Shown: positions 34,831 through 63,028, numbered from the stretch's first letter. The stretch: DNA of 64,000 bases from Thermoplasmatota archaeon (GCA_035526765.1 DATLBS010000009.1:7570-71569), one strand, 5' to 3'. The notes: generated by a model not told the origin, from the letters alone. Translations and numbers: made by a program.

Positions 34831-34839
34831 GTTTTCGGC

Positions 34840-35316
34840 CCGCACGAACCACAGATTGCACAGATTTCACAGAACCTAGCGCGAGCTCGTTTGGTGCACA
34901 GCGGCCCGGGTTCGGTTCCAGACGGCCGAGCGCTTCGCGTTCGGTTCTGGATCATCGACTATCGTACACCCCCTGTGTGGGCGGCGGCGTGGAGCACCAG
35001 AGAAGTTGTTCTTGGTGCGCGGAGCGCACGGGTCTCGAAGCGTCCCCGAGCTTCGAGGGGCGCGCTTTGCGCGCCCCCGTTCCATCGCTTACGTCAACAG
35101 CAACCCCAAGCCGTTTGGTGGCGAAGGTCTTGTCCCTTGAGGGGCCGCAGGCCCCTCGTGTCGCGCGTGTGCACGGAGCGAGCCGTGCTGGCCGTGCCAC
35201 GCGCCGCCGCCGGAGGTGCCAGTGTCATGGATTTTCTCGCTTCGGGGCGACCGATGGGTCAATCCTTGACCGGCAAGCATCCAAGGTCATCTGTGCCGTA
35301 TGTGGTTCAGTTGGGG
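34840..35316. repeat. About 470-bp mosaic intergenic element with CACAGAT arms at both ends
   Basis: GAACCACAGATTGCACAGATTTCACAGA at left, ATCTGTGCCGTATGTGGTTCAG at right; internal blocks shared with 51681-51777, 57647-57785 and 12795-12862. Confidence 0.9.
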
Positions 35317-35381
35317 GAACCGAAACCCGCCGGACCACGCACTGCGTCCCGCTTATCTGGGGGACCCTTCTGCCGTCGCCC

Positions 35382-36638
35382 ATGACATGGCATGGCCGCT
35401 TCCTCGGGGCCGCCGAGAACATCGGTCGCCTCGGCTTCGTCCTTGACACGGAAGGCTCCCGCTTCCTCTTCGACTACGGCATGGAGCCGGACAAGCCGCC
35501 CCTCTACCCGCTGCCCTCGCCGGCCATCGACCGCGTGTTCCTCACGCATTCGCACCTCGACCACTCCGGCATGCTCCCCTGGCTGGCCGCGCGCTACGAC
35601 GCCCCCGTCCTGTGCACGCCCCCCACGGCGGAGGTGGCCACCCTCATGCACAAGGACTCCCTCAAGATCGCGCGCAGCGAAGGGTTCCCGGAGCCGTACG
35701 GCGACGCCGACATCGAGGCCACCATCGGCCTGTACGACCACCAGGACTTCACGCACCCCAAGCCGATGGGCAAGCACACCCTTCGCCTCCACTCCGCCGG
35801 CCACATCCCCGGCGCCAGCCAGATGGAGCTGCAGGGCCCCAACGGCACCCTCGTCTTCACCGGCGACCTCTACACCCGCCCGCAGCGCGTCGTCATGGCG
35901 GCCAAGCAGACCAAGGCGGACGTCCTCTTCATGGAGGCGACCTATGCCGGCAAGGAGCACCCGCCCCGGGACCAGGTGGAGCAGGACTTCCGTGACTACG
36001 CGCACGAGGTCGTCGCCCGCGGCGGCGTCCTGCTGGTGCCCGCCTTCGCGGTCGGCCGCAGCCAGGAGATCGCCATGGTCCTGGCCGAGGAGGGCCTCAA
36101 CGTGTGGCTGGACGGCATGGGCCGCACGGTGGCCAAGATCTTCTCGCAGCACCCGCAGTACCTCAACGACCGCTCCGCCTACGAGCGCGCCATGGGCCGC
36201 GTCAAGATGATCCACAACCACCGCGGCCGCAGCGTCGCCCTCAAGGAGGCCGACGTCATCATCACGACGGGCGGCATGATGGACGGCGGCCCCATCCTGT
36301 TCTACCTCGATGCCGTCCGCAACGACCCCCGCTGCGGCGTCGCCATCACCGGCTACCAGGCCGAAGGCACCAATGGTCGCCGCCTTCTGGAGAAGGGGGA
36401 ACTGGACTTCGACCCCCGCGCCCCCGGCACCAAGGTGCACCGCCTCAACTGCGAGGTGCGTTCCTTCGACTTCAGCGCCCACGCCGGCCACAAGGACCTC
36501 GTCGACTTCGCGCGCCGCACCGGCGCCAAGGACATCGTCCTCTTCCATGGGGACAAGCGCGAGGCCCTCGTGGGCGACCTCAGCGACTTCGCCACGGTGC
36601 ACCTGCCCATGGTGGACCAGCCGTTCGTGATCAAGTAG
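35382..36638 (+). CDS. MBL-fold beta-CASP ribonuclease (CPSF-like)
   Basis: THSHLDHSG, SAGHIPG, FTGD, MEATY, PAFAVGRSQE, ITGYQAEGTNGR, DFSAHA. Confidence 0.9.
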   Translation: MTWHGRFLGAAENIGRLGFVLDTEGSRFLFDYGMEPDKPPLYPLPSPAIDRVFLTHSHLDHSGMLPWLAARYDAPVLCTPPTAEVATLMHKDSLKIARSEGFPEPYGDADIEATIGLYDHQDFTHPKPMGKHTLRLHSAGHIPGASQMELQGPNGTLVFTGDLYTRPQRVVMAAKQTKADVLFMEATYAGKEHPPRDQVEQDFRDYAHEVVARGGVLLVPAFAVGRSQEIAMVLAEEGLNVWLDGMGRTVAKIFSQHPQYLNDRSAYERAMGRVKMIHNHRGRSVALKEADVIITTGGMMDGGPILFYLDAVRNDPRCGVAITGYQAEGTNGRRLLEKGELDFDPRAPGTKVHRLNCEVRSFDFSAHAGHKDLVDFARRTGAKDIVLFHGDKREALVGDLSDFATVHLPMVDQPFVIK

Positions 36639-36680
36639 GACACCGGACGGCTGGAGCGCACCGGAAGCCGTCCGGCCGCG

Positions 36681-37553
36681 TCAGAAACCGCTCGCCAGGT
36701 GCGCCGCCATGCGGGCCTTCACGCGCGTGAGGACGTCCTCGTTGTCGTAGGCCCGCTCCGCCTTCTTCGGCGCGCGGATCGCCTTGTCCAGCAGCGGCAG
36801 CGCGCGGGTCAGCTCGTCCACGATCGTGATGTCGGCCATGCGGGCCGTGCGGCTGAGCGGGTTGAGGTCGATCGTCACGACGGTCTTCCCCATCCTCTTG
36901 AGCGCCTGGCAGCGGTCGCCGTCCTCCAGGGGCACGATGACGAGGTCGGCGGTGCCGATGCCGGCCTTGCAGCACCTGCCGCGGTCCGAGTCGAGACCGG
37001 GGATCTGGAAGTCCGGCTTCGCTCCCAGGACGGTGCCCTTGATGGCGCCGGACTTCTCCATGGCACGCACCAGCTTCGCGACCCGCTCCTCGGAGCGGTG
37101 GAACAGGTTCACCTCCAGCGTGATGGACGGCCACGCCCGCGCGATGGAGTCGCACAGCCCCGCCGCCAGCGCCACGACGTTGCCGTTCAGGGACAGGACT
37201 GGCCGCTTCGCGGCACGGATGCGGCGCGCGGCCTCCTGGATCGCCTCCACGGCCTCGGGCGGCGTCTTCTCGCCCAGGAGATAATCGAACGCCTCGCCGC
37301 GACCATGCGCGATCAGGCCCGTGGGGTGCACCCAGCCGGCCGTGACGGCGTCCTTCATGCGCTCGCGCACGCGCAGGCTCGCGTAGCGCGGATGCGAGGC
37401 AGGGATGTTGCTGCCGGTGCCCGCGGCCGGGGGGGCCGATTCCACGGCCCCCTCCCTCGCGTCGCCATCGGCCGGGGCCTGCGCCGGCACCCCGGCTGGC
37501 TTGGAGGCGCGCCGCGGGGCGCGCGGGGCCTTGGCCTTGGTCGCGGGGGTCAT
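36681..37553 (-). CDS. 4-phosphopantoate--beta-alanine ligase (archaeal phosphopantothenate synthetase)
   Basis: SHPRYASL, GLIAHGRGEAFDYLLGEKT, EVNLFHRS, VPLEDGDR, IDLNPLSRTA; ATGA overlap with nadC. Confidence 0.92.
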   Translation of the reverse strand: MTPATKAKAPRAPRRASKPAGVPAQAPADGDAREGAVESAPPAAGTGSNIPASHPRYASLRVRERMKDAVTAGWVHPTGLIAHGRGEAFDYLLGEKTPPEAVEAIQEAARRIRAAKRPVLSLNGNVVALAAGLCDSIARAWPSITLEVNLFHRSEERVAKLVRAMEKSGAIKGTVLGAKPDFQIPGLDSDRGRCCKAGIGTADLVIVPLEDGDRCQALKRMGKTVVTIDLNPLSRTARMADITIVDELTRALPLLDKAIRAPKKAERAYDNEDVLTRVKARMAAHLASGF

Positions 37554-38377
37554 GCGTCCCATTCCATGGAGAGGTCCTTGGCGGGGGCCTTCTGCGTGAG
37601 CCATCCGAGGCTGACGCGGTCCGCCCACCCGTACTCGAGGAGGTTGTCCGGCCGGATGCCCCCCGAGGCTTCAACCTTGATATGGGGGAACTCGGCCCGC
37701 ACCGCCCGCGCCCAGGCTTCCCCGACGGCGCCAGCCTGGTTGTCGATCAGCAGCCAGTCGGCGCCGGCGGCGGCCGCGGCGCGGGCGTCCTCGTGGCTCT
37801 CCACCTCGCACGTCACGGTCCTGCCGCGGGCGGCGGCGACCACCCTGCGAACGGCGGCGTCGACGTCGCCGGCGCAGGCGGCGATGTGGTTGTCCTTCAC
37901 CATCGCCGCGTCCCAAAGGCCCATGCGGTGCGGGTCGCCGCCCCCCACGCGGACCGCCTCCTTCTCGAAGGCGCGGAAGCCAGGCGTCGTCTTGCGCGTG
38001 GCGGCCACCTGGGCGCGCGCGCCTGCCTTCGCCAGGGCATCGGCAAGCTCCCGCGTGAGGCTTGCGATGCCGGCCATGCGCGCCAGGAGGTTGAGGGCCA
38101 GCCGCTCGCCCGCAAGGAGGGCCTGGGCCGGGCCGCGGACCTCCAGCAGGGGGGCGCCGGGGGACGCCCAGGCTCCTTCGGTGGCGCAGGGGGTGGCCGT
38201 GGCGCCGAGCCGGCGGAACACCTCGGCGGCGTGGGCGGCACCGGCCACCAGCAGCCGCTCCCGCGCGACGATGCGGGCGCTCCCCTGCTCGCCTGCGGGC
38301 AGCGCCGCCGCGGTGAGGTCGCCGGGCCCGAGGTCCTCCTGGAGGTAGAGGCCGAGCCAGTCCGGCGTCGAGGGCAC
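37550..38377 (-). CDS. nadC: Nicotinate-nucleotide diphosphorylase (carboxylating)
   Basis: EDLGPGDLT, ERLALNLL, ATRKTTPG, HRMGLWDAAMVKDNH, EASGGI. Confidence 0.93.
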   Translation of the reverse strand: MPSTPDWLGLYLQEDLGPGDLTAAALPAGEQGSARIVARERLLVAGAAHAAEVFRRLGATATPCATEGAWASPGAPLLEVRGPAQALLAGERLALNLLARMAGIASLTRELADALAKAGARAQVAATRKTTPGFRAFEKEAVRVGGGDPHRMGLWDAAMVKDNHIAACAGDVDAAVRRVVAAARGRTVTCEVESHEDARAAAAAGADWLLIDNQAGAVGEAWARAVRAEFPHIKVEASGGIRPDNLLEYGWADRVSLGWLTQKAPAKDLSMEWDA

Positions 38378-38466
38378 GCCGGGGGCACAGTTGCTGGCTA
38401 TTTTGCGGCTTGCCCGTCAAACGGTCGCGCCACAGCGGTTTTGTGCAGGCAGGCCGAGTGCGGGGC

Positions 38467-39345
38467 GTGCGCTGGCTCCTTGCCGCCGGGACCCTCCTCC
38501 TCTGCCTCCCCATGGCACAGGCGGCCCTGGACCTGTCGGTGGACCTGTCCGCGGGGGAGCTCAAGCCCGGCACCGACCAGGCGACGGCGACGGTGCGCGT
38601 GGGACTGGACTGCCAGCAGGCGCTGCTGCGGGCCCGCGGGACCGCGGATTCGCTGCCCGTGCCCATCAAGACCTCGGGCTCCCCCGCCGTCGTGGTGAGC
38701 GGCAACCCGGTCGTGAACCTCCCCCTGGAGCCCTGCCGCAAAGGGGAGCAGGCCACCGAGGTGTCCGCGGGCTACGCCGTCGGCGTGCTGGCCGGCGCCC
38801 CCGCCAACCGCCCCCTGGGGTTCAACATCACGGCCGAGCTCCCCTCCGACGTCCCCACCCTCGCCACCGCCGAGAGCAAGACCGTGCCGCTCTCCGTGAA
38901 GGCGAAACCCATCGTGCTCGTGGTCGTCGTGCAGGTGCCGCAGGCCCTCCACCTCACCCAGTCCAACCAGACGTTCCTGCTGAGCCTGGCCAACAAGGGC
39001 AACACGCCCGTGCACGTCCGCGTGACCCCTGCCTTCTCCTCGCCCGACGTCCGGTCCTATCCCGCCGAGACGGACCTCGGCACCGAGGCCATCCCCGGGT
39101 CCGGGTCCCCCACCGCCGACCTCAGGTTCTCCCTTGAGGCCCCCACCATGGACAAGCTGCCCGAGTTCACCGGGCACCTCGACATCGTCGCGCACGCCAT
39201 CGAGGGCGGCGCCCCCGACACGCAGGTGCGCGCCGACCAGTTCTTCCGCAACGAGGTGGCACCGCCGAAGTCCTCGCCCGCCTCCCCGCTGGTGCTGGCC
39301 GGCCTTGCGCTGCTGGCCTGCGCCCGCGCGCGCCGCCGCCCTTAA
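38467..39345 (+). CDS. Secreted/surface protein with C-terminal KSSP-TM-RRR anchor
   Basis: Signal peptide ending AQA; beta-rich body; ends KSSPASPLVLAGLALLACARARRRP. Confidence 0.75.
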   Translation: MRWLLAAGTLLLCLPMAQAALDLSVDLSAGELKPGTDQATATVRVGLDCQQALLRARGTADSLPVPIKTSGSPAVVVSGNPVVNLPLEPCRKGEQATEVSAGYAVGVLAGAPANRPLGFNITAELPSDVPTLATAESKTVPLSVKAKPIVLVVVVQVPQALHLTQSNQTFLLSLANKGNTPVHVRVTPAFSSPDVRSYPAETDLGTEAIPGSGSPTADLRFSLEAPTMDKLPEFTGHLDIVAHAIEGGAPDTQVRADQFFRNEVAPPKSSPASPLVLAGLALLACARARRRP

Positions 39346-39370
39346 GGGCAAGGCACGGGTCGCCGGCGCC

Positions 39371-40144
39371 ATGGGACTCCAGGTCGGCATCGTGGGCTGC
39401 GGGGCCATCGGCTCCGAGGTCGCGAGGGCCGCAAGCGCGATGGGCGGCATCGATGCGGTGTGGCTCTTCGACATCGACCCCGACGCCACCCGCCTCCTCG
39501 CCCGGCTGCCCCGCACCAAGGTCGCGCCCACCGCGGCGCACCTCGTGGAGAAGGCGCACCTGGTCATCGAGTGCGCCAACAAGGGGGTCGTGCAGACCGT
39601 CGTGCGGGACGCCCTGGCCGCGGGCAAGAAGACGATGCTGATGACCATCGGGGCGCTGGCCGACGACGCGCTGCGCGCCGAACTCGTGGGCCTTGCGACG
39701 CAGACCGGCGGCAAGATCTACCTGCCCAGTGGCGCCGTCATGGGCGTGGACGGCGTGAAGGCGGCGGCGGAGGCGGACCTGAAGTCCGTGACGTTGGTCA
39801 CGACCAAGCCGCCGGCCGGGCTTGACAAGAAGACGGACCGCTGGACGCTGCTGTTCTCGGGTCCGGCCCGCGAGGCGGTGGAGAAGTTCCCCAAGAACGT
39901 CAACGTCGCCGCCACGCTCTCGCTGGCGGGATTGGGCTTCGACCAGACCCACGTCCAGGTCGCCATCGATCCTCTGGCCACGCGCAACTCGCACAAGGTC
40001 ATCATCGAGGGCACCTTCGGCCGGGCCCGCATCGAGGTGGAGAACCTGCCCAGCCCCGCCAATCCGGCCACCAGCTACCTTGCGTCGTTGTCGGCCATCG
40101 CCTTGCTGCGACGGATCGTGTCTCCCATCGAGATCGGAGCCTAG
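39371..40144 (+). CDS. nadX: L-aspartate dehydrogenase
   Basis: GIVGCGAIG, PSGAVMGVDGV, FSGPAREAVEKFPKNVNVAA, NSHKV, NPATSYLA. Confidence 0.92.
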   Translation: MGLQVGIVGCGAIGSEVARAASAMGGIDAVWLFDIDPDATRLLARLPRTKVAPTAAHLVEKAHLVIECANKGVVQTVVRDALAAGKKTMLMTIGALADDALRAELVGLATQTGGKIYLPSGAVMGVDGVKAAAEADLKSVTLVTTKPPAGLDKKTDRWTLLFSGPAREAVEKFPKNVNVAATLSLAGLGFDQTHVQVAIDPLATRNSHKVIIEGTFGRARIEVENLPSPANPATSYLASLSAIALLRRIVSPIEIGA

Positions 40145-40271
40145 CGCCCCGCTATGTGGGGCCGCAGGCCCCACGACGCAACGTGATCGACCTTCGTTTG
40201 AAGGTCGGGATCGTGTCTCCCATCGAGATCGGAGCCTCCGCCCCGCTATGTGGGGCCGCAGGCCCCACGAC
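40113..40271 (+). repeat. 65/64-bp direct repeat comprising the nadX 3' end plus a GCA-triloop hairpin
   Basis: Copy 1 at 40113-40177, copy 2 at 40208-40271; they differ only around the stop codon (CCTAGCG vs CCTCCG). Confidence 0.92.
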
Positions 40272-40335
40272 AACCCAGGCATTGTCAGGTCCCGTCCAGA
40301 AAGGCAATATATGAACGACCTTCGTGGGAATCGCG

Positions 40336-41256: not shown

Positions 41257-41328
41257 GCGAACGGCCCTGCAGACCTCGGCTACGCGGTCGGTGGATCCGG
41301 CATGCGCCGGAGCCCCTCCTGACCTCGG

Positions 41329-43252: not shown

Positions 43253-43264
43253 TCCGCGTTCCTG

Positions 43265-45405: not shown

Positions 45406-45424
45406 GGGAGCGCGAACGAGCCCT

Positions 45425-45700
45425 CCCCTGAACCACAGATGGCACCGATGGGGCGGATGCCGTCATTGGTTCCATCGCGTCGAGTGTCCTTGGGACGTGC
45501 GTTCTCCAAATCCACCCGGTCGTGCGTTCGACCCATCGGTCTGTCGCAAAACCGCAGCCAGTCAGACGCTGCCGTGGCGCCGACGCCGGAGTCCAGGACA
45601 ACGTGTTGGAAGGGCAAGCGATGGAATGGGGCGCGCGAAGCGCGCCCGCCACAACCCCCAATGCCCTAGGGCAATCTCCGCGTGTTCCGCGCATCCGCGC
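45425..45700 (+). repeat. Mosaic intergenic element between convergent genes
   Basis: GAACCACAGATGGCACCGAT; TCGACCCATCGGTCTGTCG 45528-45546; GTGGCGCCGACGCCGG 45574; GGGCGCGC-GAA-GCGCGCCC 45629-45647. Confidence 0.9.
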
Positions 45701-45772: not shown

Positions 45773-46897
45773 TCAGCTCGACGCCTTGCCCGGCCCGGCT
45801 TCGTCTTCCTTCGCCTCGCGTTGCAGCCGGGTCTCCGCCACGAAGGCCTTGGCCTCCGTGTGCCAAGCCTTCGCCTCCTCCATCGTGGGGGCGTGCTTGG
45901 GGTCGGCCTCCTCCAGGGCGCGCTGCACGAGCGCGGGGGGGGTCTGGGCAAGGTCGCGGATGCGGGCGACCCCGACCTCGGTGAGCTGCACGGCGGCCTC
46001 GGGCTTGAGGCTTGACAGCCGCAGCAGCCCCGCCACGTTGCGGCAGCGGCCCAGCTGCGAGGCCGGGATGTCGAGCTTCTGGGCCAGCTTCTTCAGGTTC
46101 ACGTGCATGAACTCGAAGCCTCCCTTGATCCCGAGGGCGGTGAGGCGCTTGCGCTGCGCCTCGTCGATCCACCCGAACGACTCGATGCTCACCCGGCTCG
46201 CCTCGCGCTTGCCCATGCGTGCCGCGACGATGCCCACGACCACGAGGAGGACGATGACCACCCAGGGCAGGAGGTCCCACAGGCCGCCGGTGGGCAGCGC
46301 GCTGGCCGTGACCTTGATGATGATGGCCCACGCCACGTTCACGATGGCGCCGACGATGCCCAGCACGACGAGGAGCCGGGGCAGCGGCACCCGCAGGACG
46401 ACCCCGAGCGCCCCCGCGCCCAGCACGCCGGCGCCCTGCACGGGGGCCACCGCGATGATTCCGAGGCCCAGCAGGCCCCAGCGGGCGAGGAAGTGGCGGC
46501 GGCGCCAAGCCATCTGCTCGGCCGCCATGAGGATGTTGCCGATGAAGCGGGCATCGCGAAGGCCCTCGACCGCGCGCCAGGCCAGGGGCACGATGAGGAA
46601 GAGGGTCGCCGCCATGTTGAGCACGCCCATGAGGATGACGAGCCAGAGGCTGAGGTCGACGCGCGGGCCGAAGGCGTAGAAGGCGGCGGCCTGCCCGCCC
46701 GCCACCGTGGTGATGCCGATGAACCACAGCAGGGAAAAGAAGGTGGCGCGGTCGAAGAGGAAGCTGACGACGACGATGGCCGCCATGGCCGCCCAGCACA
46801 CCGCGGAGACGAGGAGGGAGACCCGCAGGACCGGCGGGTACCTCTTGCGGTGGTCCCGCAGGTGGGCCTTGAGGGCTTCGCGGGCCGCCTCCGTCAT
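45773..46897 (-). CDS. Membrane protein (small multidrug export-like) fused to a DUF4332-like helix-hairpin-helix domain
   Basis: About 6 TM with APVQGAGVLGAGALG; C-terminal GWIDEAQRKRLTALGI...LLRLSSLKPEAAVQLTEVGVARIRDLA. Confidence 0.65.
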   Translation of the reverse strand: MTEAAREALKAHLRDHRKRYPPVLRVSLLVSAVCWAAMAAIVVVSFLFDRATFFSLLWFIGITTVAGGQAAAFYAFGPRVDLSLWLVILMGVLNMAATLFLIVPLAWRAVEGLRDARFIGNILMAAEQMAWRRRHFLARWGLLGLGIIAVAPVQGAGVLGAGALGVVLRVPLPRLLVVLGIVGAIVNVAWAIIIKVTASALPTGGLWDLLPWVVIVLLVVVGIVAARMGKREASRVSIESFGWIDEAQRKRLTALGIKGGFEFMHVNLKKLAQKLDIPASQLGRCRNVAGLLRLSSLKPEAAVQLTEVGVARIRDLAQTPPALVQRALEEADPKHAPTMEEAKAWHTEAKAFVAETRLQREAKEDEAGPGKASS

Positions 46898-47096
46898 GGC
46901 CCGCCCTCCGTCCGGCCGCGCAGGGGAGGGCATCGGTCCCCGCAGGCACGGCCACGCCTTAAGGCGCTGCACTCCCCGAACCTGGCTGGGGTGCGCGCGG
47001 AGCCTCGACGCGAAACGAGGGCCCCCGCAGGCCCGCATCGACCCACAAACCCGTCACGTGAAGCCTCGGGAAGGGAACTTCCTTGGAGGCAGGGGC

Positions 47097-47117
47097 TTCC
47101 ACGCGAAATGAAGGGGT
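47097..47117 (+). promoter_or_regulatory. Origin recognition box (ORB)-like Orc1/Cdc6 binding site
   Basis: TTCCACGCGAAATGAAGGGGT fits the euryarchaeal ORB pattern TTCCAnnnGAAAnnnnGGGGT; about 150 nt upstream of cdc6. Confidence 0.65.
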
Positions 47118-47268
47118 CAACAGGAACGAGGCAGGCCGGGGGCGAACCTATATTTCCCCTGGCCACTTCGGTCGAAATCCCGCTTCGTGCAGGACCGATG
47201 CAACCCATGGAACCGCTGGGAGGCGGACTTCATGGCTGGCCGCGCGAATCGAGGATGGGAGGCTCCAG

Positions 47269-48564: not shown

Positions 48565-48581
48565 GGCTTCGGCCTGCCGTC

Positions 48582-48806
48582 CGCAGAGAGCGCAGAGAGG
48601 GGGAGTCTTGGCTGGCCCCTGGTTTTCGGCGCCCACCGAACACAGATGGCACCGATGAGGCGGATGCTCCCACTCGCCGGAATTGACCCATCGCTCTGTT
48701 GCAAGGGGGCGCGCGAGGCGCGCCCGCGCAAACCTGTCACGGAACCCACGGAACCTTGGAAACCGAGACTCAAGCTTGGCTTTGCGGTTTCCGTGGCTTC
48801 CGTGGC
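48582..48806 (+). repeat. Mosaic intergenic element between convergent genes
   Basis: CGCAGAGAG x2, GAACACAGATGGCACCGAT, TTGACCCATCG, GGGCGCGC-GAG-GCGCGCCC 48707-48725, CACGGAACCCACGGAA...TTCCGTGGCTTCCGTGG. Confidence 0.88.
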
Positions 48807-48865
48807 CAGGAAGGGGGAGGGCGGCCGCGTGGCCGCGGCATCCGCTGTGAAGTCCTGGGCATCGA

Positions 48866-49792
48866 CTATTGCTGCGGCGGTGGCTGCAAGGGCTCCAGCC
48901 CCTCGTCCTTGCCCTTGCCCGCCAGTTTCCTCGCCGCCGTGACACCGTAGGGCAGGGCCACCAGGACGCCGAGGCTCACCACCAGCATCACCTTCGTGTC
49001 GCCGCCCGCGTTGCTGAAGTTCGTGGAGGGACCGCGCAGGTCGTCGACGAAGAGCTTGATGAGCCCGAACCACGGGAGCTCCCCGCGCGCCTTGCCGAGG
49101 ACCCAGTCCAACCGGGCAGGACCGGTGGCCAACCCGTTGGCGCACTGGTCCGCGACCTGGTTGTTGTCGCCCTTGGTGATGAAGCCGGAGTCCGCCATCG
49201 TCCAGCGGTGCGGGCCCGTCGTGCCCCCGAGGGTGCAGTGGGTCAGCGACGTCACCGCCTTCTGGTCCAGGGTCGCGACGTGGAAGATCCCCAGGTCCGG
49301 CACGGAGTACGTGTGGTCGGAGTCGTTGACCTGCACGTAGAAGAGGGCGCGATGGATGATGGGGGTCACCTGCGTGCTCCCGCCAGGGCGGTAGACGACG
49401 ACGTCGCCGGCCTTCGCGTAATGCGTGGCGCCCGCCTGCGCGAGGGTGGCCACCTGCGCGCGGTCCGTGATGTGGCGCACGAAGACGAGGTCCCCGGGGT
49501 CGATGGTCCCGATGCGCCCGTAGCGCAGGGGCTTGCAGTCCTTCCCGTAGGAGGGGCCCACGCCGTCGAGGCCGACGTCGGCGCAGTGCATCATGCTGCC
49601 CGAGGTGACCACGACGACGGGGTAGCCGCCGGCGATGGGCTGCCCGGTGGCCGCGTACAGGACCCCCAGGAGCGCGAGGATGACGAAGGCCCCCGCCAGG
49701 ACCTCGCGGACGGCGGGGTAGGGGGAGTCGTCGCGGGTGAGGAACCGGTGTAGCCGGGGCGCCCTCTCGCGCAGCCAGGCGACCCGGGACAC
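48866..49792 (-). CDS. Signal peptidase I (S26, archaeal Ser-His type), paralog 1
   Basis: VVTSGSM, GDVVVY, PIIHRA, ITKGDNN, PWFGLIKL; GTG start inferred. Confidence 0.88.
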   Translation of the reverse strand: MSRVAWLRERAPRLHRFLTRDDSPYPAVREVLAGAFVILALLGVLYAATGQPIAGGYPVVVVTSGSMMHCADVGLDGVGPSYGKDCKPLRYGRIGTIDPGDLVFVRHITDRAQVATLAQAGATHYAKAGDVVVYRPGGSTQVTPIIHRALFYVQVNDSDHTYSVPDLGIFHVATLDQKAVTSLTHCTLGGTTGPHRWTMADSGFITKGDNNQVADQCANGLATGPARLDWVLGKARGELPWFGLIKLFVDDLRGPSTNFSNAGGDTKVMLVVSLGVLVALPYGVTAARKLAGKGKDEGLEPLQPPPQQ

Positions 49793-49847
49793 GGGCGTTC
49801 GATTCGGGCGGGGCACAAAGCCTCTCCCGTGCCGCCGCGTCCCGCCG

Positions 49848-50702
49848 CTACGGCCCGCGTGGCGCACGAAGGCGGCGCGCCAGGCCGACGAGGGACGGCG
49901 CCGCCAGCAGGACGCCCAGCGTGACGACGAGGAGCACCTTCGCGTCCATGGAGGCGTTGGCGAAGTTCTTCGTCGCACCGGGGGGACTCCGCAGGTCGTC
50001 CACGAAGAGCTTCACGAGGCCCACCCACGGCACCTCGCCGCGCGCCTTGCCGATCACCCACTCCAGCCGCACGGGGCCGGAAGCGTTGCCGGGGCACTGG
50101 TCCGCGGCCAGGTTGTTGTCGCCGCGCGTGACGAAGCCGGAGTCCTTCGTCAGCGGAAGGATGCAGCCCGTCACCGCCACGAGCCGGGCCTGGTCGAGGC
50201 TGGAGGCATGGGAGATGCCGAGGTCCGCCACGGAGTAGGTGCCATCGCTCTCCGCCTGCACGAAGAAAAGGGCGCGATGGATGATGGCGGTGGCCGTCAG
50301 GGAGCCGCGCGGGTGGTACACGATCACGTCGCCAGCCTTCCCGTACGTCGCGTCCCCATCACCGGCCAGGGTGGCGACGTCCCTCACGGAATCCACGCTG
50401 CGCACGAACACCAGGTCGCCGGGGTCGATGGTGCCGATGCGGCCATAGTTCCCCGACTCGCAGGTCCTGCCGTAGTTGGCCTCGAGCGTGCCCGCGTTGC
50501 GGCAATGCATCATGCTGCCGGATGTGACCACCACCACCGGCCGCCCGCCGGCCAGGGGCTGCGCCGTTGCGCCATAGAGGAGCGCCAGCAGGACCAGGAT
50601 GACGAGGGCGCCGCCCACGACCTCGCGCACGAGGGGATAGGGCCGGTCGCCCCGCGTGAGGAAACGGTGCAGCCCCGGCGCACGGTCCTTGAGCCACGCC
50701 AC
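49848..50702 (-). CDS. Signal peptidase I (S26, archaeal Ser-His type), paralog 2
   Basis: VVTSGSM, GDVIVY, AIIHRA, VTRGDNN, PWVGLVKL; GTG start inferred. Confidence 0.88.
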   Translation of the reverse strand: MAWLKDRAPGLHRFLTRGDRPYPLVREVVGGALVILVLLALLYGATAQPLAGGRPVVVVTSGSMMHCRNAGTLEANYGRTCESGNYGRIGTIDPGDLVFVRSVDSVRDVATLAGDGDATYGKAGDVIVYHPRGSLTATAIIHRALFFVQAESDGTYSVADLGISHASSLDQARLVAVTGCILPLTKDSGFVTRGDNNLAADQCPGNASGPVRLEWVIGKARGEVPWVGLVKLFVDDLRSPPGATKNFANASMDAKVLLVVTLGVLLAAPSLVGLARRLRAPRGP

Positions 50703-51410: not shown

Positions 51411-51440
51411 CCAGTCAACCATATGGCCGGGTTTCGCTGC

Positions 51441-51790
51441 CCACTGAACCACAGATGCCACAGATGGACGCAGATACAGGTCCCTTCAGGCTCAACGTTG
51501 GACCCAGAATCTCAACTTCGAGTCTCCAAAGCCACCTGCCTCTGATTTGACGCATCGGTCGCCGTGAAGACCCGAGGCTCAGGTCCTAGGGGTGTGTGTG
51601 GGCGGCGGCGGGTTGTTCCTGCAAGCGATGGCATGGGGCGCGCGAAGCGCGCCCGCCGAAACCAATCCAACGCTGCGGAGCCGTGCGCCCCGCGCACCAA
51701 GAACAATTTTTTCAACCTCCGCGCCCCCGCCGCCGTCCAAGGGGTGTTAGGCTCAACATGATCCAGAACCGAACGCGGAGGGGCCGACCA
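51441..51790 (+). repeat. Mosaic intergenic element between convergent genes
   Basis: GAACCACAGATGCCACAGAT; TTGACGCATCGGTCG; GGGCGCGC-GAA-GCGCGCCC 51636-51654; ATGATCCAGAACCGAACGCG 51758-51777 is the exact reverse complement of 34936-34955. Confidence 0.9.
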
Positions 51791-51837
51791 CCCAGAATGC
51801 TGGAGGCATCACAAGTTAGGAAATGCCGCCCGTGACC

Positions 51838-53752: not shown

Positions 53753-56659
<2,907 letters not shown>

Positions 56660-56700
56660 AGGAAAACGGCATGGCGTAAGGGCCCGGGGGTCGGCACGAA

Positions 56701-56867: not shown

Positions 56868-56985
56868 CTCCTCGCGAAGCGACGGACATGCCGGTGCGTG
56901 GCAGGCCGAGCGGCACAGCGTCTCCTGCCGCTGCCCAAAAACGTCCAACGCAGGTTTATGCTCCGCTTTCTGGATGGTCCCCTGG

Positions 56986-57429
56986 ATGCGGTCGGTCACC
57001 GGAGGGTTGTTCCTCGTGAGCGTCAAGATCCGCGACGAGCCCGGCGCCCTCGCCCGCGTCGCCCGGCTGCTGGCGGCGCACAACATCAACCTGCGCGGCC
57101 TCATGGTGGACGCCGCCGGCATCAACCTCCTGACGCAGTCCCTCCCCACGGCCCGGGCGGCGCTCGACGACAGCGACCTGCGCTACGAGACGCAGGAGGT
57201 CCACGAGGTGCTCCTGGAGGACCACCCCGGCACGCTGGCGGACCTGTGCGAGCGCCTGGCCAACGCCGGCATCAACATCGTGACCGCCTTCGGCGTCAGC
57301 ACCGGCAGCGCGGGCCGCATCTACATCAACGTGAGCGACCTCCCGCGGGCGGCGCCCATCATCGACACCGTGAGCCAGGGTCCAGCCCTCGTGCATTACC
57401 GGTTGGGCCGCATCGGCCCGGCGCCCTGA
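56986..57429 (+). CDS. Tandem ACT domain protein
   Basis: DEPGALARVARLLAAHNINL and DHPGTLADLCERLANAGINI; TTTATG about 26 nt upstream. Confidence 0.85.
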   Translation: MRSVTGGLFLVSVKIRDEPGALARVARLLAAHNINLRGLMVDAAGINLLTQSLPTARAALDDSDLRYETQEVHEVLLEDHPGTLADLCERLANAGINIVTAFGVSTGSAGRIYINVSDLPRAAPIIDTVSQGPALVHYRLGRIGPAP

Positions 57430-57559
57430 ACCTCAGCCTCGCCTTTTCCAGCTGTTCGCCCGCGTGTTTCGTCTCAATCGGCCTGCATCGCATGGTTCCC
57501 TTTGTCGAGCACTCCCGGGGCGTTCTCAGGCCGTCATGCGCTCCGCGTTCGGTTCCGAC

Positions 57560-58135
57560 GGCTCGCTCCCGACCTTCAAACGACGGTCGACCACGTTGCG
57601 TCGTGCGGTCTACGACCGCACATGGCATTCCCCTCTGACTTACCGGACACGCGCGACATGAGGGGCCTGCGGCCCTTCAAGGGACAAGACAAACACTGGG
57701 TTCTGGACCACCGACGTTCCATCACTCCTGTGTGGGGGCGGCGTCCAGCACCAGGAAAATGCTTGTGGTGAGCAAGCGCACGGCCCCAATTGCACGTGGA
57801 TAGGACGGAAAGTGCGGAGGCACTCCCCCGTTTTTTGCCGCGGAACCCACGGAAGCCCACGAAGTTAGACGTGAGTTCGATTCCCGTGAGTTCCGTGCCT
57901 TCCGTGGCTGGTTTCGGCGGGCGCGCTTCGCGCGCCCCATGCCATCGCTCGCAACATCGTCTCGTCGTGCCGGAGCACGGCGTCGTCGTCACAGGCGTGT
58001 TGACCGGTTGCGGGTTTACGACAGACCGATGGGTCGATTCGCGTCGAGGGATTTTGGAGGCCCGGCATAGGCGCTGACAGCAGGTGGGCGCCTCCATCTT
58101 CCCCAATCTGTGCCATCTGTAGTTCAGTGGGGGCC
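57560..58135 (-). repeat. About 580-bp mosaic intergenic element between convergent genes
   Basis: On the minus strand: GAACTACAGATGGCACAGAT, TCGACCCATCGGTCTGTCG (58019-58037), GAA hairpin (57919-57937), CACGGAA arms, GCA and GTA hairpins (57660-57678, 57603-57621). Confidence 0.92.
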
Positions 58136-58157
58136 GAAGCCCTGCCAAGAACTCGGG

Positions 58158-59102: not shown

Positions 59103-59329
59103 GCGGGGAGAACCCCTCGCCCTGGCTTGAATTTTCCTGGCCCTTGGCCGGTGCCCCGCGCATGCGGCGGACTGCGTCGCGCCCCAGGGGCGGCGCAGCG
59201 AATGGGTTAAGAGAGCCCCCCGAGTCGGCGCGCGTGCGCCCCTTTGGGGCGCGCGGGGTTCTGCCCTGGGATTCCCTGGCTCCGGCGTCCGCCGGAGCCG
59301 CATCGGGTGTCCTGAGGACACCCTCGCCC

Positions 59330-59402
59330 GGTCCTGTAGTGTAGCGGCCAATCATGGTGCCCTCTCACGGCACCGACCCGGGTTCAAATCCCGGCGGGAC
59401 CA
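59330..59402 (+). tRNA. tRNA-Glu (anticodon CTC), CCA not encoded
   Basis: Acceptor GGTCCTG/CGGGACC, anticodon stem GTGCC/GGCAC with loop CTCTCAC, T-loop GGTTCAAATCC. Confidence 0.96.
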
Positions 59403-59493
59403 TTCGCCTGGCTCCGCGCGGCCTCGCGCCCCGGCATGACGCCTGCCCATGGCCTTGCTGCGTGGCAACCCTTAACCTGGGGCCGCCGCTGGA

Positions 59494-59748
59494 ATGGGCG
59501 TGGTGGCGCCCCTTGGTCGCGATGCCCGCAGGTTGGACCTGCAGGCGCGCTTCAACCAGATGAGCGTGCGGCGGGAGGAGCTGGAGCGGCGCTACCCCGG
59601 CAGCTTCGGCATCGGGGGGATGCCGCCCAACCCCTTGGGCAAGCGCGCCCCCGACGGCCTCGTGGAGGAATGGAGGATCCTGTGCGATGCCCTGGCGAAG
59701 GTGGAGGCCGACCTCGCCACCCTGGTCCCCGAGCCCCCGAAGGCTTGA
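59494..59748 (+). CDS. Small hypothetical helical protein
   Basis: GCAACCCTTAA at 59465-59475 upstream; start 59494 or 59500. Confidence 0.55.
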   Translation: MGVVAPLGRDARRLDLQARFNQMSVRREELERRYPGSFGIGGMPPNPLGKRAPDGLVEEWRILCDALAKVEADLATLVPEPPKA

Positions 59749-59773
59749 ACCCGCGGCTTGGGCTCGCGGCGGC

Positions 59774-60586
59774 GTGGGCGAGCCTGCACGCATCGTGAGC
59801 CTCGTGCCCAGCCACACCGAGTCGCTGCACGCCCTCGGCCTCGCGGCCCGCGTCGTCGGCCGCACCCGCTTCTGCATCCACCCGGAACCCTGGGTCGGCA
59901 CGGTGCCCGCCGTCGGCGGCACGAAGGACGCCAGGCTGGACCGCATCCTCGCGCTGCGCCCCGACCTCGTGGTGGCGGACAAGGACGAGAACCCGAAGGC
60001 GCTGGTGGAGGCCCTGCAGGCCGCAGGGGTGGAGGTGCTTTGGTCGGAGATCGACGCCGTCGAGGACGCCGCACGCTTCCTGGAGGCGCTGGGCCGCCGC
60101 TGCGGCGCCGACCAGGCCGCCACGGTCCTGGCCAGGGACCTCCGCGCCGCGATGGCCGAGGTCGCGGTCGCGGGCGGAGGTGGGCCCGGCGTGCCCGTGT
60201 TCTGCCCCATCTGGCATGCGCCCTGGATGACGTTCGACCGCACCGCGTACCCGAGCGCCATGCTGGCTGCCGTCGGCCTACGAAACGTCTTCGCGGACCA
60301 CGCGGGACCCAAGTACTTCCAGGTCGCGGACGGCGAGGTGGCCGCAGCGGGTGCCCAGTGGTCGCTGCTGCCCTCAGAGCCGTTCCCCTTCCACCGCCAC
60401 CCCGTCGACACCTCCGGCCTGGGGCCGGCGGGGCATCCCGAGCGGGTGCGCGTCATCGACGGCGAGGCGCTCACCTGGTTCGGGGCGCGCACCGCGGCGG
60501 GGCTGCGCGAGCTGGCCGGTGTGGCGCGCTCGCTGGTCAGTCCTGGCGGCGGCGCTGCAGCAGGGCCGCGCAGCCCAGCAGGCTGA
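59774..60586 (+). CDS. Helical-backbone metal receptor (BtuF/TroA-like substrate-binding protein)
   Basis: RIVSLVPSHTESL, VGRTRFCIHP, VGGTKD..LDRILALRPDLVV..KDEN, IDGEALTWFG. Confidence 0.85.
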   Translation: MGEPARIVSLVPSHTESLHALGLAARVVGRTRFCIHPEPWVGTVPAVGGTKDARLDRILALRPDLVVADKDENPKALVEALQAAGVEVLWSEIDAVEDAARFLEALGRRCGADQAATVLARDLRAAMAEVAVAGGGGPGVPVFCPIWHAPWMTFDRTAYPSAMLAAVGLRNVFADHAGPKYFQVADGEVAAAGAQWSLLPSEPFPFHRHPVDTSGLGPAGHPERVRVIDGEALTWFGARTAAGLRELAGVARSLVSPGGGAAAGPRSPAG

Positions 60587-62582
60587 CCAGGGCCAGCAAG
60601 CCTGCGCCGGGGCTCGACCGCGAGGCGCCTTCCACGGCCTTGGCGCGCGCCGCCGCGTCGTAGGGCCCGAGGCCACCGTGCAGGTCCTCGAAGGCGGCGC
60701 CGCTCCCGCTGCCGCCGGCGCCGCCGGCGGAGCGCGTGGCCGACGCGGTGCCGTAGGCGGCGGAGCCGTCGGCGCTGGCGGCCATGGGCGCTTCCTTGGC
60801 GCCCGCGGAGGCGTACATGCAGCATCCGCCGTTGGATTCCTGGCCCGGCGTCAACTGGATGTCGAAGGGGGTCTCGCCGGACTTCAGGGTCAGCATGCCG
60901 ACCCAGTGGAGGTGGCCCTCGGCGTAGGCGTAGACGTCCATGTGGCCGCTGCGGACCTTGATGCTGTAGGAGCCGTCCTTGTCGGTGGTGGCGGAGCCGT
61001 ACCCGTAGCCGTCCTGGCTGCTGAAGCTCACCTGGGCGTTGGGGATCGCCTTGCCGGTCGAGGCATCGACGACGTAGCCGGAGACGACGGCGTCGGGGGC
61101 AGGCCGCTGCTCGAGGCGGACCGTCACCTTGGTGGTGGCGTCCGCGGGCAGGTCGAGGACCTGGTTCCAGGCGTAGTGCTCGGGCCGGCAGGGCCTGTAG
61201 TTGCCATCGGTCTGGGGGCAGTCGCGGTAGGCGTCGTGGCCGACCGAGAGGACCGTGTAGCCCGGGGTGACGTCGCCGCTGAAGGTGCCGTCGCTGTTGA
61301 CGCGGATCGCGCAGCCGTTGCTGTAGCCGCCCGGGTAGGGGTAGGAGACATCGCTGCTGGTGGGGCTCTCCGGGTCGCTGGGCGGCGTCTCCTGCGCGGG
61401 CTTGGGCGGGGAGTCGTCGGCCTGGGAGGCGTCCTGGCTGCACTCGTAGAGGCCGTAGCGGGGCGACTGCACGCCGATGTAGAGGGCCGAGAGGCCCTTG
61501 CCGGTGGAGGCGTCCACGACGCGGCCCTCGATGTGGGCCGTCTTGGGGGGGAACTTCTGCATCTCGATGTCGTGCGCCACGGATGCGCCCGTCACCTCGA
61601 CGTTCGCGTAGTGGTTCGCGTAGCCTTCGTGGTACACGTTCATGCTGACGCTCACGCCGCTTGCGACATGGATGCTGTAGCGGCCCTCGCGGTCGGTGAC
61701 CGTGGAGTTGTAGCCGTTGCCGTAGTAGGGGCGCGCGACCGCCATGCCGGAGCTGGGGCTGGACGCGGAGGCGGGGGAGGCGGTGCCGGAGGAGGTGGAG
61801 GTGTCGTACGCGTGGCAGCAGCCGCCGTAGCCGCCGTAGCTGTACACGTTGATGGTGAAGCCGGGCAGGGGCGTCCCGTCCTGGTCGCGGACCACGCCGT
61901 GCAGGGTGGCGTCCTGCCTGGGGGCTTCGGGGACGCGGAGGGCGACCCCCTGGGTGCCGTCCACGAACTGGCTGACCGAGGCCAGCTGCATGCCGTCGGA
62001 GTCGACCGAGAAGGTGCGCTCGCCGGACTGGGTCGTGACGGTGAAGGCGCCGTCGGCGTCCGTGTACGTGTCGGTCATGCCGAAGTCGTTGGCGCAGCAC
62101 ACCGTGACGTGGGCCTTCGGCAGGCCCTTGCCGTCCTGGTCGGTGACGGTGCCCTTGACGTCGATCGACCTGGGGACCAATCCGACGCGGCGTTCGGTGG
62201 CACCCTGGATGTTGAGCTGGAACTCCATGGTCTCGTAGCCCACGCGCTTGAGCTCTAGGGTGTACGTGCCTGCCGTGAGGTCGGAGCCGGAGAACGTGTA
62301 GGTGCCGTTCTGGTTGGTGGTGCCGGACTTGTCGACCGCGAGGGCGCCCGTGCCCCCGACGCCGGCCTTCGTGAGGTGGAGCTGGACGTTGCCCAGGGCG
62401 GGGCCGCAGCCGGCAGCGTCGCCGGGCTCGGGCGCCTGCACGTAGTTGACGTTGCGGTCGCGCGAGCAGACGTCGACGTCGAGGGAGTTGGACACCTGCG
62501 CATCGATGGGGTGCGGCACGAGGGCGATGGCGCCCAGCAGGAAGACGGCGGTGAGGACGAGGGCGGACGGCTTGCGGTCCAT
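60537..62582 (-). CDS. Carboxypeptidase-regulatory-like repeat surface protein with RSSP-TM-RRR anchor
   Basis: Signal peptide; repeated G.V.D..TGK.IP.A.V / TTD.DG.Y modules; ends RSSPGAGLLALVSLLGCAALLQRRRQD. Confidence 0.82.
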   Translation of the reverse strand: MDRKPSALVLTAVFLLGAIALVPHPIDAQVSNSLDVDVCSRDRNVNYVQAPEPGDAAGCGPALGNVQLHLTKAGVGGTGALAVDKSGTTNQNGTYTFSGSDLTAGTYTLELKRVGYETMEFQLNIQGATERRVGLVPRSIDVKGTVTDQDGKGLPKAHVTVCCANDFGMTDTYTDADGAFTVTTQSGERTFSVDSDGMQLASVSQFVDGTQGVALRVPEAPRQDATLHGVVRDQDGTPLPGFTINVYSYGGYGGCCHAYDTSTSSGTASPASASSPSSGMAVARPYYGNGYNSTVTDREGRYSIHVASGVSVSMNVYHEGYANHYANVEVTGASVAHDIEMQKFPPKTAHIEGRVVDASTGKGLSALYIGVQSPRYGLYECSQDASQADDSPPKPAQETPPSDPESPTSSDVSYPYPGGYSNGCAIRVNSDGTFSGDVTPGYTVLSVGHDAYRDCPQTDGNYRPCRPEHYAWNQVLDLPADATTKVTVRLEQRPAPDAVVSGYVVDASTGKAIPNAQVSFSSQDGYGYGSATTDKDGSYSIKVRSGHMDVYAYAEGHLHWVGMLTLKSGETPFDIQLTPGQESNGGCCMYASAGAKEAPMAASADGSAAYGTASATRSAGGAGGSGSGAAFEDLHGGLGPYDAAARAKAVEGASRSSPGAGLLALVSLLGCAALLQRRRQD

Positions 62583-62682
62583 GGAGTGGACATGTCCCTT
62601 CGGACTATATCAACCCCGGTCGGCAGGCGGGGGTTTCCCCAACCATGGGGGGAGCCGCGTTGGGCCCTTCGGCGCACCCGCC

Positions 62683-63028
62683 GGAACCACAGGATGCCAC
62701 CGATGGAGAGGATTCCCTGGCTTTCCACAGATGGAGAGGTGCCCCCCGGCCTTCCGCCCACGCCTCCGGTAATTTTCCTCTAACAATCTCCAAAGGCGCC
62801 GGGTCCAAGCCACCTTCCACGATCGACCCATCGGCCTGTCGTGAACCCGCGACCCGTCCAACCTGCTGTGGCGCCGACGCCGGCGTCCAGATACAACGGG
62901 TTGGGACAGTTGGCGATGGCGTGTGCGCGCGAAGCGCGCCCGCCGAACCTGGCCAGGAACGCGCGGAGACCGCGGAAATCCTGGCAGTTGCCATGCGCTG
63001 CGGGGGGGTGTGTCCGCGTGTTCCGCGA
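62683..63028 (+). repeat. Mosaic intergenic element between divergent genes
   Basis: GAACCACAGGATGCCACCGAT; TCGACCCATCGGCCTGTCG 62823-62841; GTGGCGCCGACGCCGG 62868; GCGCGC-GAA-GCGCGC 62925-62939; CGCGGA arms. Confidence 0.88.

Follow-up and report, generated by a model that had tools for sequence, protein, structure and literature searches.

Hairpin-ended mosaic repeats in an uncultured soil Thermoplasmata archaeon: candidates for non-autonomous mobile DNA

What kind of DNA is a family of short palindromic repeats that is dispersed between the genes of an archaeon, and how could its members have reached their present sites? The stretch that raises this question is 64,000 nt long (hereafter the window; GCA_035526765.1, DATLBS010000009.1:7570-71569) and contains six long repeat elements (E1 to E6), a compact hairpin (E0) and several smaller pieces. 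On balance we think it probable that the repeats are mobile DNA of a non-autonomous kind with hairpin ends, and that their host is an uncultured Thermoplasmata archaeon from soil. The directly supported parts of this interpretation are the family itself, its array-built ends, its copy number, its position relative to genes, and a gene junction that is empty, filled or differently filled in related genomes. Repeats of the repetitive extragenic palindrome (REP), bacterial interspersed mosaic element (BIME) and miniature inverted-repeat transposable element (MITE) types shape bacterial genome structure, mRNA stability and recombination, so dispersed palindromic mosaics are a known kind of sequence; what sets this case apart is the archaeal host and the unusual ends built from arrays. 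Repeats of these types are poorly documented in archaea, and we found nothing for Thermoplasmatota.

A repeat family on a common backbone

The repeat family is real and lies far above chance. The box TCGACCCATCGGTCTGTCG is found at 45528 (plus strand), at 58019-58037 (minus strand) and, with 1 mismatch, at 62823, and a weaker copy is at 48683 (4 matches against 0.01 expected). When the window is compared with shuffled sequences, the head motif AACCACAGATKGCACMGAT gives 8 matches against 0.03 expected and the GC hairpin GGGCGCGCGAAGCGCGCCC occupies 6 sites, with about 0.5 matches expected. Longer similarities point the same way: 34924-34955 is the reverse complement of 51758-51789 (the distal 20 nt exactly), 35003-35034 and 51678-51709 are 91% identical, 35127-35170 and 57647-57690 are 95% identical, and GTGGCGCCGACGCCGG occurs at both 45574 and 62868. 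Self-BLASTN carried the similarity beyond the stretches first noticed, aligning 34936-35090 with 51777-51623 (159 nt, 75%), 45528-45656 with 58037-57910 (131 nt, 79%), 62820-62944 with 45525-45650 (127 nt, 80%) and 48706-48828 with 57938-57814 (126 nt, 75%). By self-BLASTN and motif counts, all of the exact or near-exact matches listed in an earlier, sequence-only reading of the window are present. Direct-repeat arrays with 9-nt units number 21 in the window and 2.2 in shuffles, and their density (3.3 per 10 kb) exceeds that in 556 kb of GC-rich control contigs (0.7 per 10 kb).

Repetition of this sort could in principle reflect an assembly artefact, or else replication-origin elements, i.e. 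clusters of origin recognition boxes (ORBs). The latter idea draws on the fact that E2 and E3 flank the DUF4332-cdc6 gene pair and that an ORB-like box lies upstream of cdc6. The conserved ORB-like box, CTTCCACGCGAAATGAAGGGGTC at 47085-47115, nevertheless lies apart from the elements and has no copies inside them, and the elements stand beside unrelated genes across 60 kb. Independent Logan contigs of soil metagenome run X1 reproduce E3 and E4 with zero mismatches (one such contig spans 48459-49061, i.e. E3), and the elements are therefore neither an assembly artefact nor a chimera, a doubt that had been raised earlier. Both forms of this explanation are almost certainly wrong. A reading as clustered regularly interspaced short palindromic repeats (CRISPR) was rejected because the repeats are irregularly spaced.

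When oriented by their heads, the six long elements align on one collinear backbone (alignment A1) in the order head, TCTCCAAA, box, variable middle, GC hairpin module and tail. The head of the backbone is GGTTTCGGC.CCCACTGAACCACAGATGGCACAGATGG.GCGGATG and its box is ATCGACCCATCGGTCTGTCG; the GC hairpin module consists of GCAAGCGATGGNAT, the hairpin GGGGCGCGCGAAGCGCGCCC, closed by a GAAG-type loop, and GCCGAAACC; the tail is a hairpin or half hairpin made of CACGGAA or CGCGGAW units. Heads and tails are of the same kind: both are arrays in which a unit with the core C-R-C-N-G-A recurs about every 9 nt, as two to four direct repeats. An array and its inverted counterpart pair into a long stem with a non-coding interior between them. 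Two smaller hairpin modules, of 44 and 63 nt, vary in place and orientation independently of the backbone. The 44-mer is found in the middle of E1, in the opposite sense in the far tail of E5, and alone at 12790, and the 63-mer at the end of E5 and in a tandem pair at 40113-40271. The earlier description of shared blocks in different order and orientation therefore applies to these two modules; it fails for the backbone, which is collinear, and orientation differences there arise because whole elements are inverted.

E1 (34831-35330, minus strand) is the fullest composite. Its minus-strand order is head, box (35262-35245), 44-mer (35170-35127), GC hairpin (35076-35058) and an E4-like tail, and it ends in a second, inverted head, so that terminal inverted repeats (34847-34875 plus, 35289-35316 minus) stand about 415 nt apart. 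E2 (45406-45700, plus strand) has its head at 45425-45462, TCTCCAAA at 45504-45511, the box at 45528-45546 and the GC hairpin module at 45614-45656, and it ends in an inverted CGCGGAW array (45676-45699). In E3 (48565-48830, plus strand) an array of CGCAGAGAG (48582-48597) precedes the head (48632-48658), a shortened box (48683-48701), the GC hairpin (48707-48725) and a CACGGAA-type tail hairpin (48733-48808). E4 (51411-51800, plus strand) begins with a four-unit head (51442-51475) and continues with a degenerate box near 51548, a GC hairpin module (51620-51664) that is 98% identical to the copy in E5, and a tail (51664-51790) homologous to E1. E5 (57555-58157, minus strand) reads, on that strand, head (58134-58095), box (58037-58019), GC hairpin (57953-57909) and CACGGAA tail hairpin (57908-57836), then the 44-mer (57690-57647, inverted relative to E1) and the 63-mer (57626-57564). 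E6 (62650-63040, plus strand) contains a degenerate head (62683-62712), the box (62823-62841), GTGGCGCCGACGCCGG at 62868, the GC hairpin (62923-62947) and a CGCGGAW tail hairpin (62955-63040). The compact E0 (25972-26098, 127 nt) is made of two inverted heads and a 32-nt loop, its arms being inverted CACAGAT-type 9-mers at 25980-26007 and 26040-26067. Terminal inverted repeats are clear in E0 and E1; in E2 and E6 the end arrays are unlike each other, and in E3 and E5 the tail forms a hairpin of its own.

Eight modules were folded as single-stranded DNA. Four of them clearly exceed shuffles in stability, namely E0 (z -5.3), the 63-mer copy at 40140 (-4.7) and the tails of E3 (-4.0) and E5 (about -4). 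The remaining four, i.e. the GC hairpin module, the 44-mer, the 63-mer copy of E5 and the tail of E6, are weak, with z from -1.1 to -2.2. The stem of the 63-mer is kept between two copies through two compensatory changes. The possibility that the elements are decayed genes was rejected, as none of the long open reading frames (ORFs) inside them matched Pfam; that no conserved ORF lies inside the elements and no transposase in the window had been stated before, and is borne out.

Host, position, turnover and abundance

Judged by its gene content, the host is an uncultured soil Thermoplasmatota archaeon. The window has a G+C content of about 70% throughout and encodes subunits A and B of DNA topoisomerase VI (Topo VI), an archaeal-type leucyl-tRNA synthetase (LeuRS), phosphopantothenate synthetase, an archaeosine tRNA-guanine transglycosylase (TGT) with a PUA domain (arcTGT-PUA) and Orc1/Cdc6. 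The closest Cdc6 relatives are 93-86% identical, and they come from metagenome-assembled genomes (MAGs) labelled Thermoplasmata or Thermoplasmatota. It is because of Topo VI A and B, LeuRS, phosphopantothenate synthetase, arcTGT-PUA, Cdc6 and these named Thermoplasmata relatives that we call the host archaeal, in agreement with the sequence-only reading. Soil metagenome run X1 carries the window DNA (78% of sampled words), and the same run search found it in none of the RNA runs.

On a corrected gene map E2, E3, E4 and E5 sit between convergent genes, which upholds the earlier statement that four of the six long copies lie between convergent 3' ends. E1 is located between tandem genes, one for glutamate dehydrogenase and one for a metallo-beta-lactamase/beta-CASP-like protein (family assigned from translation), E6 between divergent genes, and E0 within an operon, between top6B and top6A. 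In five of six elements the head stands 17-70 nt past a stop codon and has the same direction as the gene that ends there.

This arrangement is what one would look for if the elements were selected, cis-acting RNA, i.e. stem-loops of the 3' untranslated region with a stabilising or terminating effect on the transcripts upstream, or else genes for small RNAs. Their similarity would then stem from function, and duplication or gene conversion, not transposition, would have multiplied them. Besides their position and sense, the local hairpins are stable, the variants of the arms are mostly A/G on one arm and T/C on the other (changes that can pass via G-U pairs), and there are hairpins inside operons, not only between top6B and top6A in the window but also between atpG and atpD at L004, one of the loci that carry the head motif. 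A structured RNA spanning the whole element was rejected, however: the fold of E2 is no better than shuffles on either strand (z -0.8 and -1.5), and the covariation term is very weak (-0.75). When the window and eight bacterial loci were searched against Rfam with gathering and E-value thresholds, only tRNA-Glu passed, and the elements and the bacterial hairpins gave sub-threshold microRNA-like matches only. E6 lies between divergent genes, the unrelated sequences at the same sites in relatives argue against a conserved site-specific function, and a functional origin alone does not account for an arm of 27-29 nt that an archaeon has in common with Gammaproteobacteria. We therefore regard RNA function as an unlikely explanation of the family, and it does not exclude mobility. 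As a side effect the elements would supply upstream genes with stable 3' stem-loops; such a function is compatible with mobile elements and may be why they are tolerated.

The top6B/top6A junction is an insertion/deletion polymorphism with a target-duplication-like footprint. In L262 and L264 (Top6A 91% and 88% identical) the top6B stop overlaps the top6A start (ATGA) and there is no spacer. The window has, between top6B (stop at 26103, minus strand) and top6A (start near 25965), the 127-nt E0 flanked by GGGGGCGAGTGAATGG and GGGGGCGTGTGATGG. These flanks form a 15-16-nt imperfect direct repeat (25956-25971, plus strand CCATCACACGCCCCCC; 26099-26114, plus strand CCATTCACTCGCCCCC) that duplicates exactly the top6B-stop/top6A-start junction, and both the stop and the start are preserved. 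At the same junction L263 (89%) holds a different, 145-nt hairpin with CACGGATT arms, and L261 (95%) has a CACGAATT arm 17 nt before top6A. The junction fits either insertions that took place independently or a single old one that was later lost or converted in some lineages. Among relatives with about 90% protein identity, modules are acquired, lost or exchanged for others. In both cases the presence/absence polymorphism between relatives, on which the proposal of a mobilised family had been made to depend, is found.

The region downstream of cdc6 also differs between relatives. The window, L118 and L121 have array hairpins of differing types (compact and CACCGAG-type in L118; CACAGATT-type with a 160-nt loop in L121), and L119 has an unrelated tandem repeat. 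L119 and L121, which are syntenic with the window (Cdc6 92% and 90% identical), are without any long module. Both have tandem repeats of their own, with GGCCGCAGGCC-type hairpins like the 63-mer of the window: a 93-nt intergenic unit occurs twice after TGT in L121 (9400-9600), and a GGGCCGATGCCCGCAGGCG-containing unit occurs three times after cdc6 in L119 (11300-11460). Downstream of top6A, L263 has a ParE-toxin pair (3515-4023) and L264 a PDDEXK_19-HTH gene (4169-5134), the window has neither, and the neighbourhood of top6A is therefore variable.

The abundance of the modules outside the window was estimated from Logan contigs, in which repeats collapse so that depth sums over copies; about half of run X1 was read. 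Contigs unique to the window genome have a depth of about 9-15. The summed depth is 885-1523 for the 63-mer core, which is the most abundant module, 425-674 for the AT-type head of E1, about 190-270 for the GC hairpin module, 45-307 for the 44-mer region, 57-95 for the box and 14-62 for the GC-type head, i.e. overall the modules reach about 5 to 100 times single-copy depth in the source metagenome. Many contigs pass from a module into flanks unlike the window, and their loose ends hold more CACGGAA and CGCGGAA arrays. Given this excess depth and the many unlike flanks, the family is not confined to the window, a restriction that would have spoken against the earlier proposal, and the unequal abundances are what is expected of a mosaic of separately spreading units. 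A scan of JGI metagenomes with a 20-mer of the GC hairpin for copies of the backbone returned 112 loci, nearly all of them chance matches in GC-rich DNA.

The abundance of the 63-mer bears on the mechanism first suggested for this locus, a REP/BIME-type system moved by RAYT enzymes (HUH/Y1, related to IS200/IS605) that act on single-stranded DNA hairpins. REPs are marked by an unpaired GTAG or CGTC at one end of the stem, and such tagged REPs have been reported in 8 bacterial phyla and in no archaea (PMC3733652). The present modules are short imperfect palindromes, extragenic and of high copy number, and they form a BIME-like mosaic. The 63-mer, moreover, has CGTC directly 5' of the compensating stem (CGTC followed by GTGGGGCC..GGCCCCAC in one copy and by GTGCGGTC..GACCGCAC in the other), which is the form of the CGTC-tagged REPs (PMC3733652), and it is this CGTC-bearing module that predominates in the metagenome. 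On the other hand, the GTAG/CGTC tag stands beside the 63-mer stem only, and neither the heads nor the GC hairpin nor the 44-mer has it; the CGTC module has two copies only in the window; and the 9-nt array arms are unlike any REP in the same survey. No Y1_Tnp/RAYT gene was found in the scanned window ORFs (64 kb) or in the gene tables of the eight relatives' loci (about 100 kb). A RAYT-driven origin is thus decidedly unlikely, and this part of the sequence-only reading is not supported. Its suggestion of a possibly undescribed family is supported: we found no Rfam family for it, and literature searches with the arm sequences themselves, or on MITEs of Thermoplasmata, yielded no papers.

The head motif and GxxExxY genes in bacteria and viruses

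The 19-mer of the head occurs at no fewer than 117 bacterial loci (at least 117, in one genome per species, 596 Gb), as compared with a rough chance expectation of a few tens of matches. Planctomycetota, Verrucomicrobiota, Chloroflexota, Bacteroidota, Spirochaetota, Acidobacteriota and Proteobacteria are represented among the matches listed, which include the isolates Solimonas marina, Solimonas soli, Asticcacaulis and Chryseobacterium and no archaea. The bacterial matches extend into the third repeat unit and very often have an inverted partner 20-170 nt away, and 27 nt of the E1 arm AACCACAGATTGCACAGATTTCACAGA recur unchanged in arms from Solimonas and from a Tepidisphaeraceae MAG. In a test of the distance to ORF ends, 44% of the bacterial heads follow such an end by no more than 60 nt, compared with 15% for positions drawn at random; a longest-open-frame test of coding position is unreliable, since the head motif is stop-free in several frames. 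About 5 distinct viral contigs carry true copies of the head, the remaining viral matches being coding.

One bacterial locus, L020 (740-1010, in a Tepidisphaeraceae MAG), is an onion-like palindrome in which each layer is mirrored on the other side: from the outside in, CCGAA-type arrays, CACGGAG-type arrays and a CACAGATT hairpin. Such nested palindromes suggest insertion into the centre of older hairpins. At another, L013, which belongs to a Bacteroidales MAG, tandem repeats of 8 nt (GACTTATA, GACTCATA, GACTCGGT) form runs at 2524-2582 and 6997-7079, the second directly upstream of a CACAGATT head, and there are two cassettes about 1.1 kb apart with a common 59-nt end that includes the head.

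Among the bacterial loci and the 18 viral ones, the sole recurrent gene beside the head motif encodes a protein of about 125 aa, GxxExxY (TIGR04256, E-values 1e-37 to 1e-44; Pfam PF13366, PDDEXK_3). The gene lies inside arrays at seven of the eight loci picked by the motif. At L025, L044, L061 and L099 an array stands 30-60 nt before the start codon and an inverted array directly after the stop; L048 and L089 have one of the two arms only, L045 lies in a denser field of arrays, and L039 has CGCGGAA-type arms, the type found in the tails of E2 and E6. Close homologues from IMG/VR picked without the motif were in all four cases flanked by inverted 9-nt arrays, here of other types (CGCGAAAAG, ACGGAATAA, CGCAGATAA, CACGAAAAN). 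Three loci picked by the protein all have the upstream array, and two of them the downstream one as well; here the array opens with T(A/G)AACC, and this start falls at the stop codon of the gene before it or overlaps that codon. Taken together, arrays bracket GxxExxY in 14 of the 15 close homologues examined (7/8, 4/4 and 3/3). As a separate observation, the GxxExxY proteins P0337, P0345, P0343 and P0342 are each present with identical sequence on 10-18 different contigs; for P0342 the six places examined are one locus (with an adjoining Tad gene) in different samples rather than separate insertion sites.

A survey of the PD-(D/E)XK superfamily (PMC3424549) lists PF13366 without a known function, records it from both prokaryotes and viruses, and reports that it was transferred several times between Bacteria and Archaea and forms mixed clades of the two. 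We found no paper on GxxExxY/PF13366 that describes the flanks of the gene, no solved structure detectable by sequence and no PADLOC entry, and among the best 120 GxxExxY matches no archaeal member is named. In the window, its elements included, and in the archaeal loci covered, tblastn and a profile search of six-frame translations detected neither a GxxExxY gene nor a remnant.

These loci also bear on the idea that the elements are classical MITEs, i.e. deletion derivatives of insertion sequences (IS) moved by a DDE transposase that reads their terminal inverted repeats. The terminal inverted repeats of E0 and E1, the sizes (127-600 bp), the lack of an ORF, the many copies and the direct repeat flanking E0 all fit it. 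Yet no transposase with these ends was found among the bacterial, viral and archaeal loci, where GxxExxY is the only recurrent gene between arms; the 15-16-nt duplication is seen once, and most composites have unlike end arrays. A duplication of that length is long for a DDE transposase. We hold this origin to be very unlikely. An integron attC origin was rejected as well: the arms start with AAC and end with GTT, but the flanks misfit RYYY/RRRY, the gene separates the two arms, and an integrase was not seen.

Returning to non-autonomous mobile elements, we can outline how they may have arisen. Small hairpin modules would insert into or beside one another, and recombination between copies would complete the mosaic. 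A trans-acting protein might recognise the 9-nt arrays and move the elements, which is the least certain step. By association, we speculate that the best candidate for such a mover could be the GxxExxY (PF13366/TIGR04256) PD-(D/E)XK nuclease, since inverted arrays of this kind enclose its gene in bacterial genomes and viral contigs. Arms of AT-rich, bacterial-consensus type stand in an archaeon with 70% G+C, and for this reason cross-domain acquisition is suggested; speculatively, the AT-rich arms could be recent cross-domain imports and the GC-rich variants older copies that have drifted towards GC.

Several points weigh against this interpretation. Direct repeats flanking E1 to E6 do not exceed chance, so that a duplication is seen at one site (E0) only, and beside the bacterial hairpins the flanks often continue the palindrome and form no duplication. 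Replacement through recombination or gene conversion would explain the same observations without true transposition. Neither GxxExxY nor another candidate enzyme was found in the window or in the eight relatives' loci, and the link to GxxExxY is an association in other organisms only. Depth in a metagenome is not assignable to a single genome, and a selected RNA function would be compatible with the data as well.

A wider proposal can be made, which we regard as possible but doubtful. The hairpins of 9-nt arrays would be the ends of an undescribed minimal mobile element of Bacteria and Archaea, whose autonomous form, about 0.5 kb long, would encode GxxExxY (about 125 aa) alone and would insert at or just after stop codons or in the centres of hairpins; the archaeal mosaics would be gene-less derivatives, transferred across domains and then driven to high GC. 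The elements of the window could be at most such gene-less derivatives of GxxExxY-type cassettes. The likeness is that both have inverted 9-nt arrays, several of them identical in sequence (AACCACAGATTGCACAGATT...), that the arm begins at or next to the upstream stop, and that the arms of the cassettes are about 370-440 nt apart, as compared with about 415 nt in E1. Unlike the cassettes, the elements of the window have a conserved non-coding backbone as their interior and lack the gene and any detectable remnant of it.

It is instructive to compare the elements with other known systems. Like bacterial REPs, BIMEs and REP doublets forming hairpins (REPINs), they are short, extragenic, high-copy palindromes that form mosaics, stand at 3' ends or inside operons, and belong to lineage-specific families with rapid turnover. 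They differ in the archaeal host, in arms built as arrays of 9-nt direct repeats as opposed to the single 20-40-nt palindrome of a REP, in main modules that lack the tag, and in that no RAYT was found in the window or the relatives' loci. Furthermore, one arm type is common to several phyla and to two domains; a REP family, by contrast, is typically confined to one species or genus. With MITEs (Correia, Nezha and the MITEs of Sulfolobus and Haloquadratum) they share terminal inverted repeats, a small non-coding body, multiple copies and insertion polymorphism; unlike MITEs they have no parent IS or transposase with matching ends, the composites are without target duplications, and the inverted repeats are made of tandem sub-repeats. 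The intervening sequences of 23S rRNA (Leptospira type), which are suspected to be of mobile origin, form a long stem whose loop contains an ORF for a four-helix-bundle protein. To go by this general description, they resemble the present elements in the long inverted-repeat stem around a small ORF or non-coding loop, and differ from them in that the elements lie outside rRNA and in the contrast of PD-(D/E)XK with four-helix bundle.

The archaeal family thus offers an empty, a filled and a differently filled site for comparison. The cross-domain arm and the consistent pairing with an uncharacterised nuclease family raise its interest above the ordinary. At least 8000 proteins in the database belong to GxxExxY, a nuclease family whose function is unknown; its link with the arrays gives a testable idea of its role and of how tiny selfish cassettes could cross domains. 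Should that link prove wrong, the elements would still be a soundly described repeat family of an ordinary type whose host is unusual.

Smaller pieces and other features of the window

Most of the shorter or decayed pieces that had been listed beside the long elements are real, some of them tens of bases away from where they had been placed; the piece at 15090-15215 had no significant match. The piece near 1924 is an isolated 9-mer array (1935-1950, plus strand, CGCGGAACC twice). For those near 18295 and 24690 the nearest isolated arrays are at 18347-18363 (minus strand, CACGGAGGT, CGCGGAAAT) and 24770-24785 (plus strand, CGCGGATGC, CGCGGAATG). The piece at 12795 is the solo 44-mer hairpin module (12790-12862, plus strand), which is 80-82% identical to 35122-35196 (82% for the piece itself), and that at 25978 is E0. 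The piece at 40150 belongs to the tandem pair of a 65-nt unit (40113-40271) that is also found in E5. Its copies are 97% identical and have GGGGCCGCAGGCCCC and CGACCTTCGTTTGAAGGTCG hairpins, 40151-40213 matches 57564-57626 (87%, inverted), and the pair abuts the stop of the aspartate dehydrogenase gene.

Apart from the repeat family, there are a few further points of interest in the window. The ORB-like box is located directly upstream of orc1/cdc6 (within 47040-47120) and is conserved in the syntenic relatives L119 (9800-9900) and L121 (9810-9900); because of this conservation the region is probably a replication origin. A DUF4332 gene (45773-47038, minus strand) stands between TGT and the ORB-like region in the window, and L119 and L121 are without it.

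The spacer between leuS and gdh (32783-33540) is a 750-nt non-coding region with a G+C of 0.62, lower than that of the window. Near 33016-33030 it contains GGTTCCACTGGAACC, which is perfectly palindromic, and further along two tandem copies of a sequence of about 70 nt (33152-33219 and 33230-33299, 82% identical); these repeats are unrelated to the mosaic family and have no Rfam match. Two pairs of tandem paralogues without a Pfam match were also noted, one in 20893-24288 (20903-22217 and 22409-23741, 72% identical over 1.37 kb) and one in 48866-50700 (49025-49762 and 49980-50681, 72% identical). Finally, the ORF of Topo VI subunit B (26103-28955, minus strand) comprises about 950 aa, and its match to the family model begins only at residue 260, meaning that the protein has a long N-terminal extension or else that its true start is further downstream.

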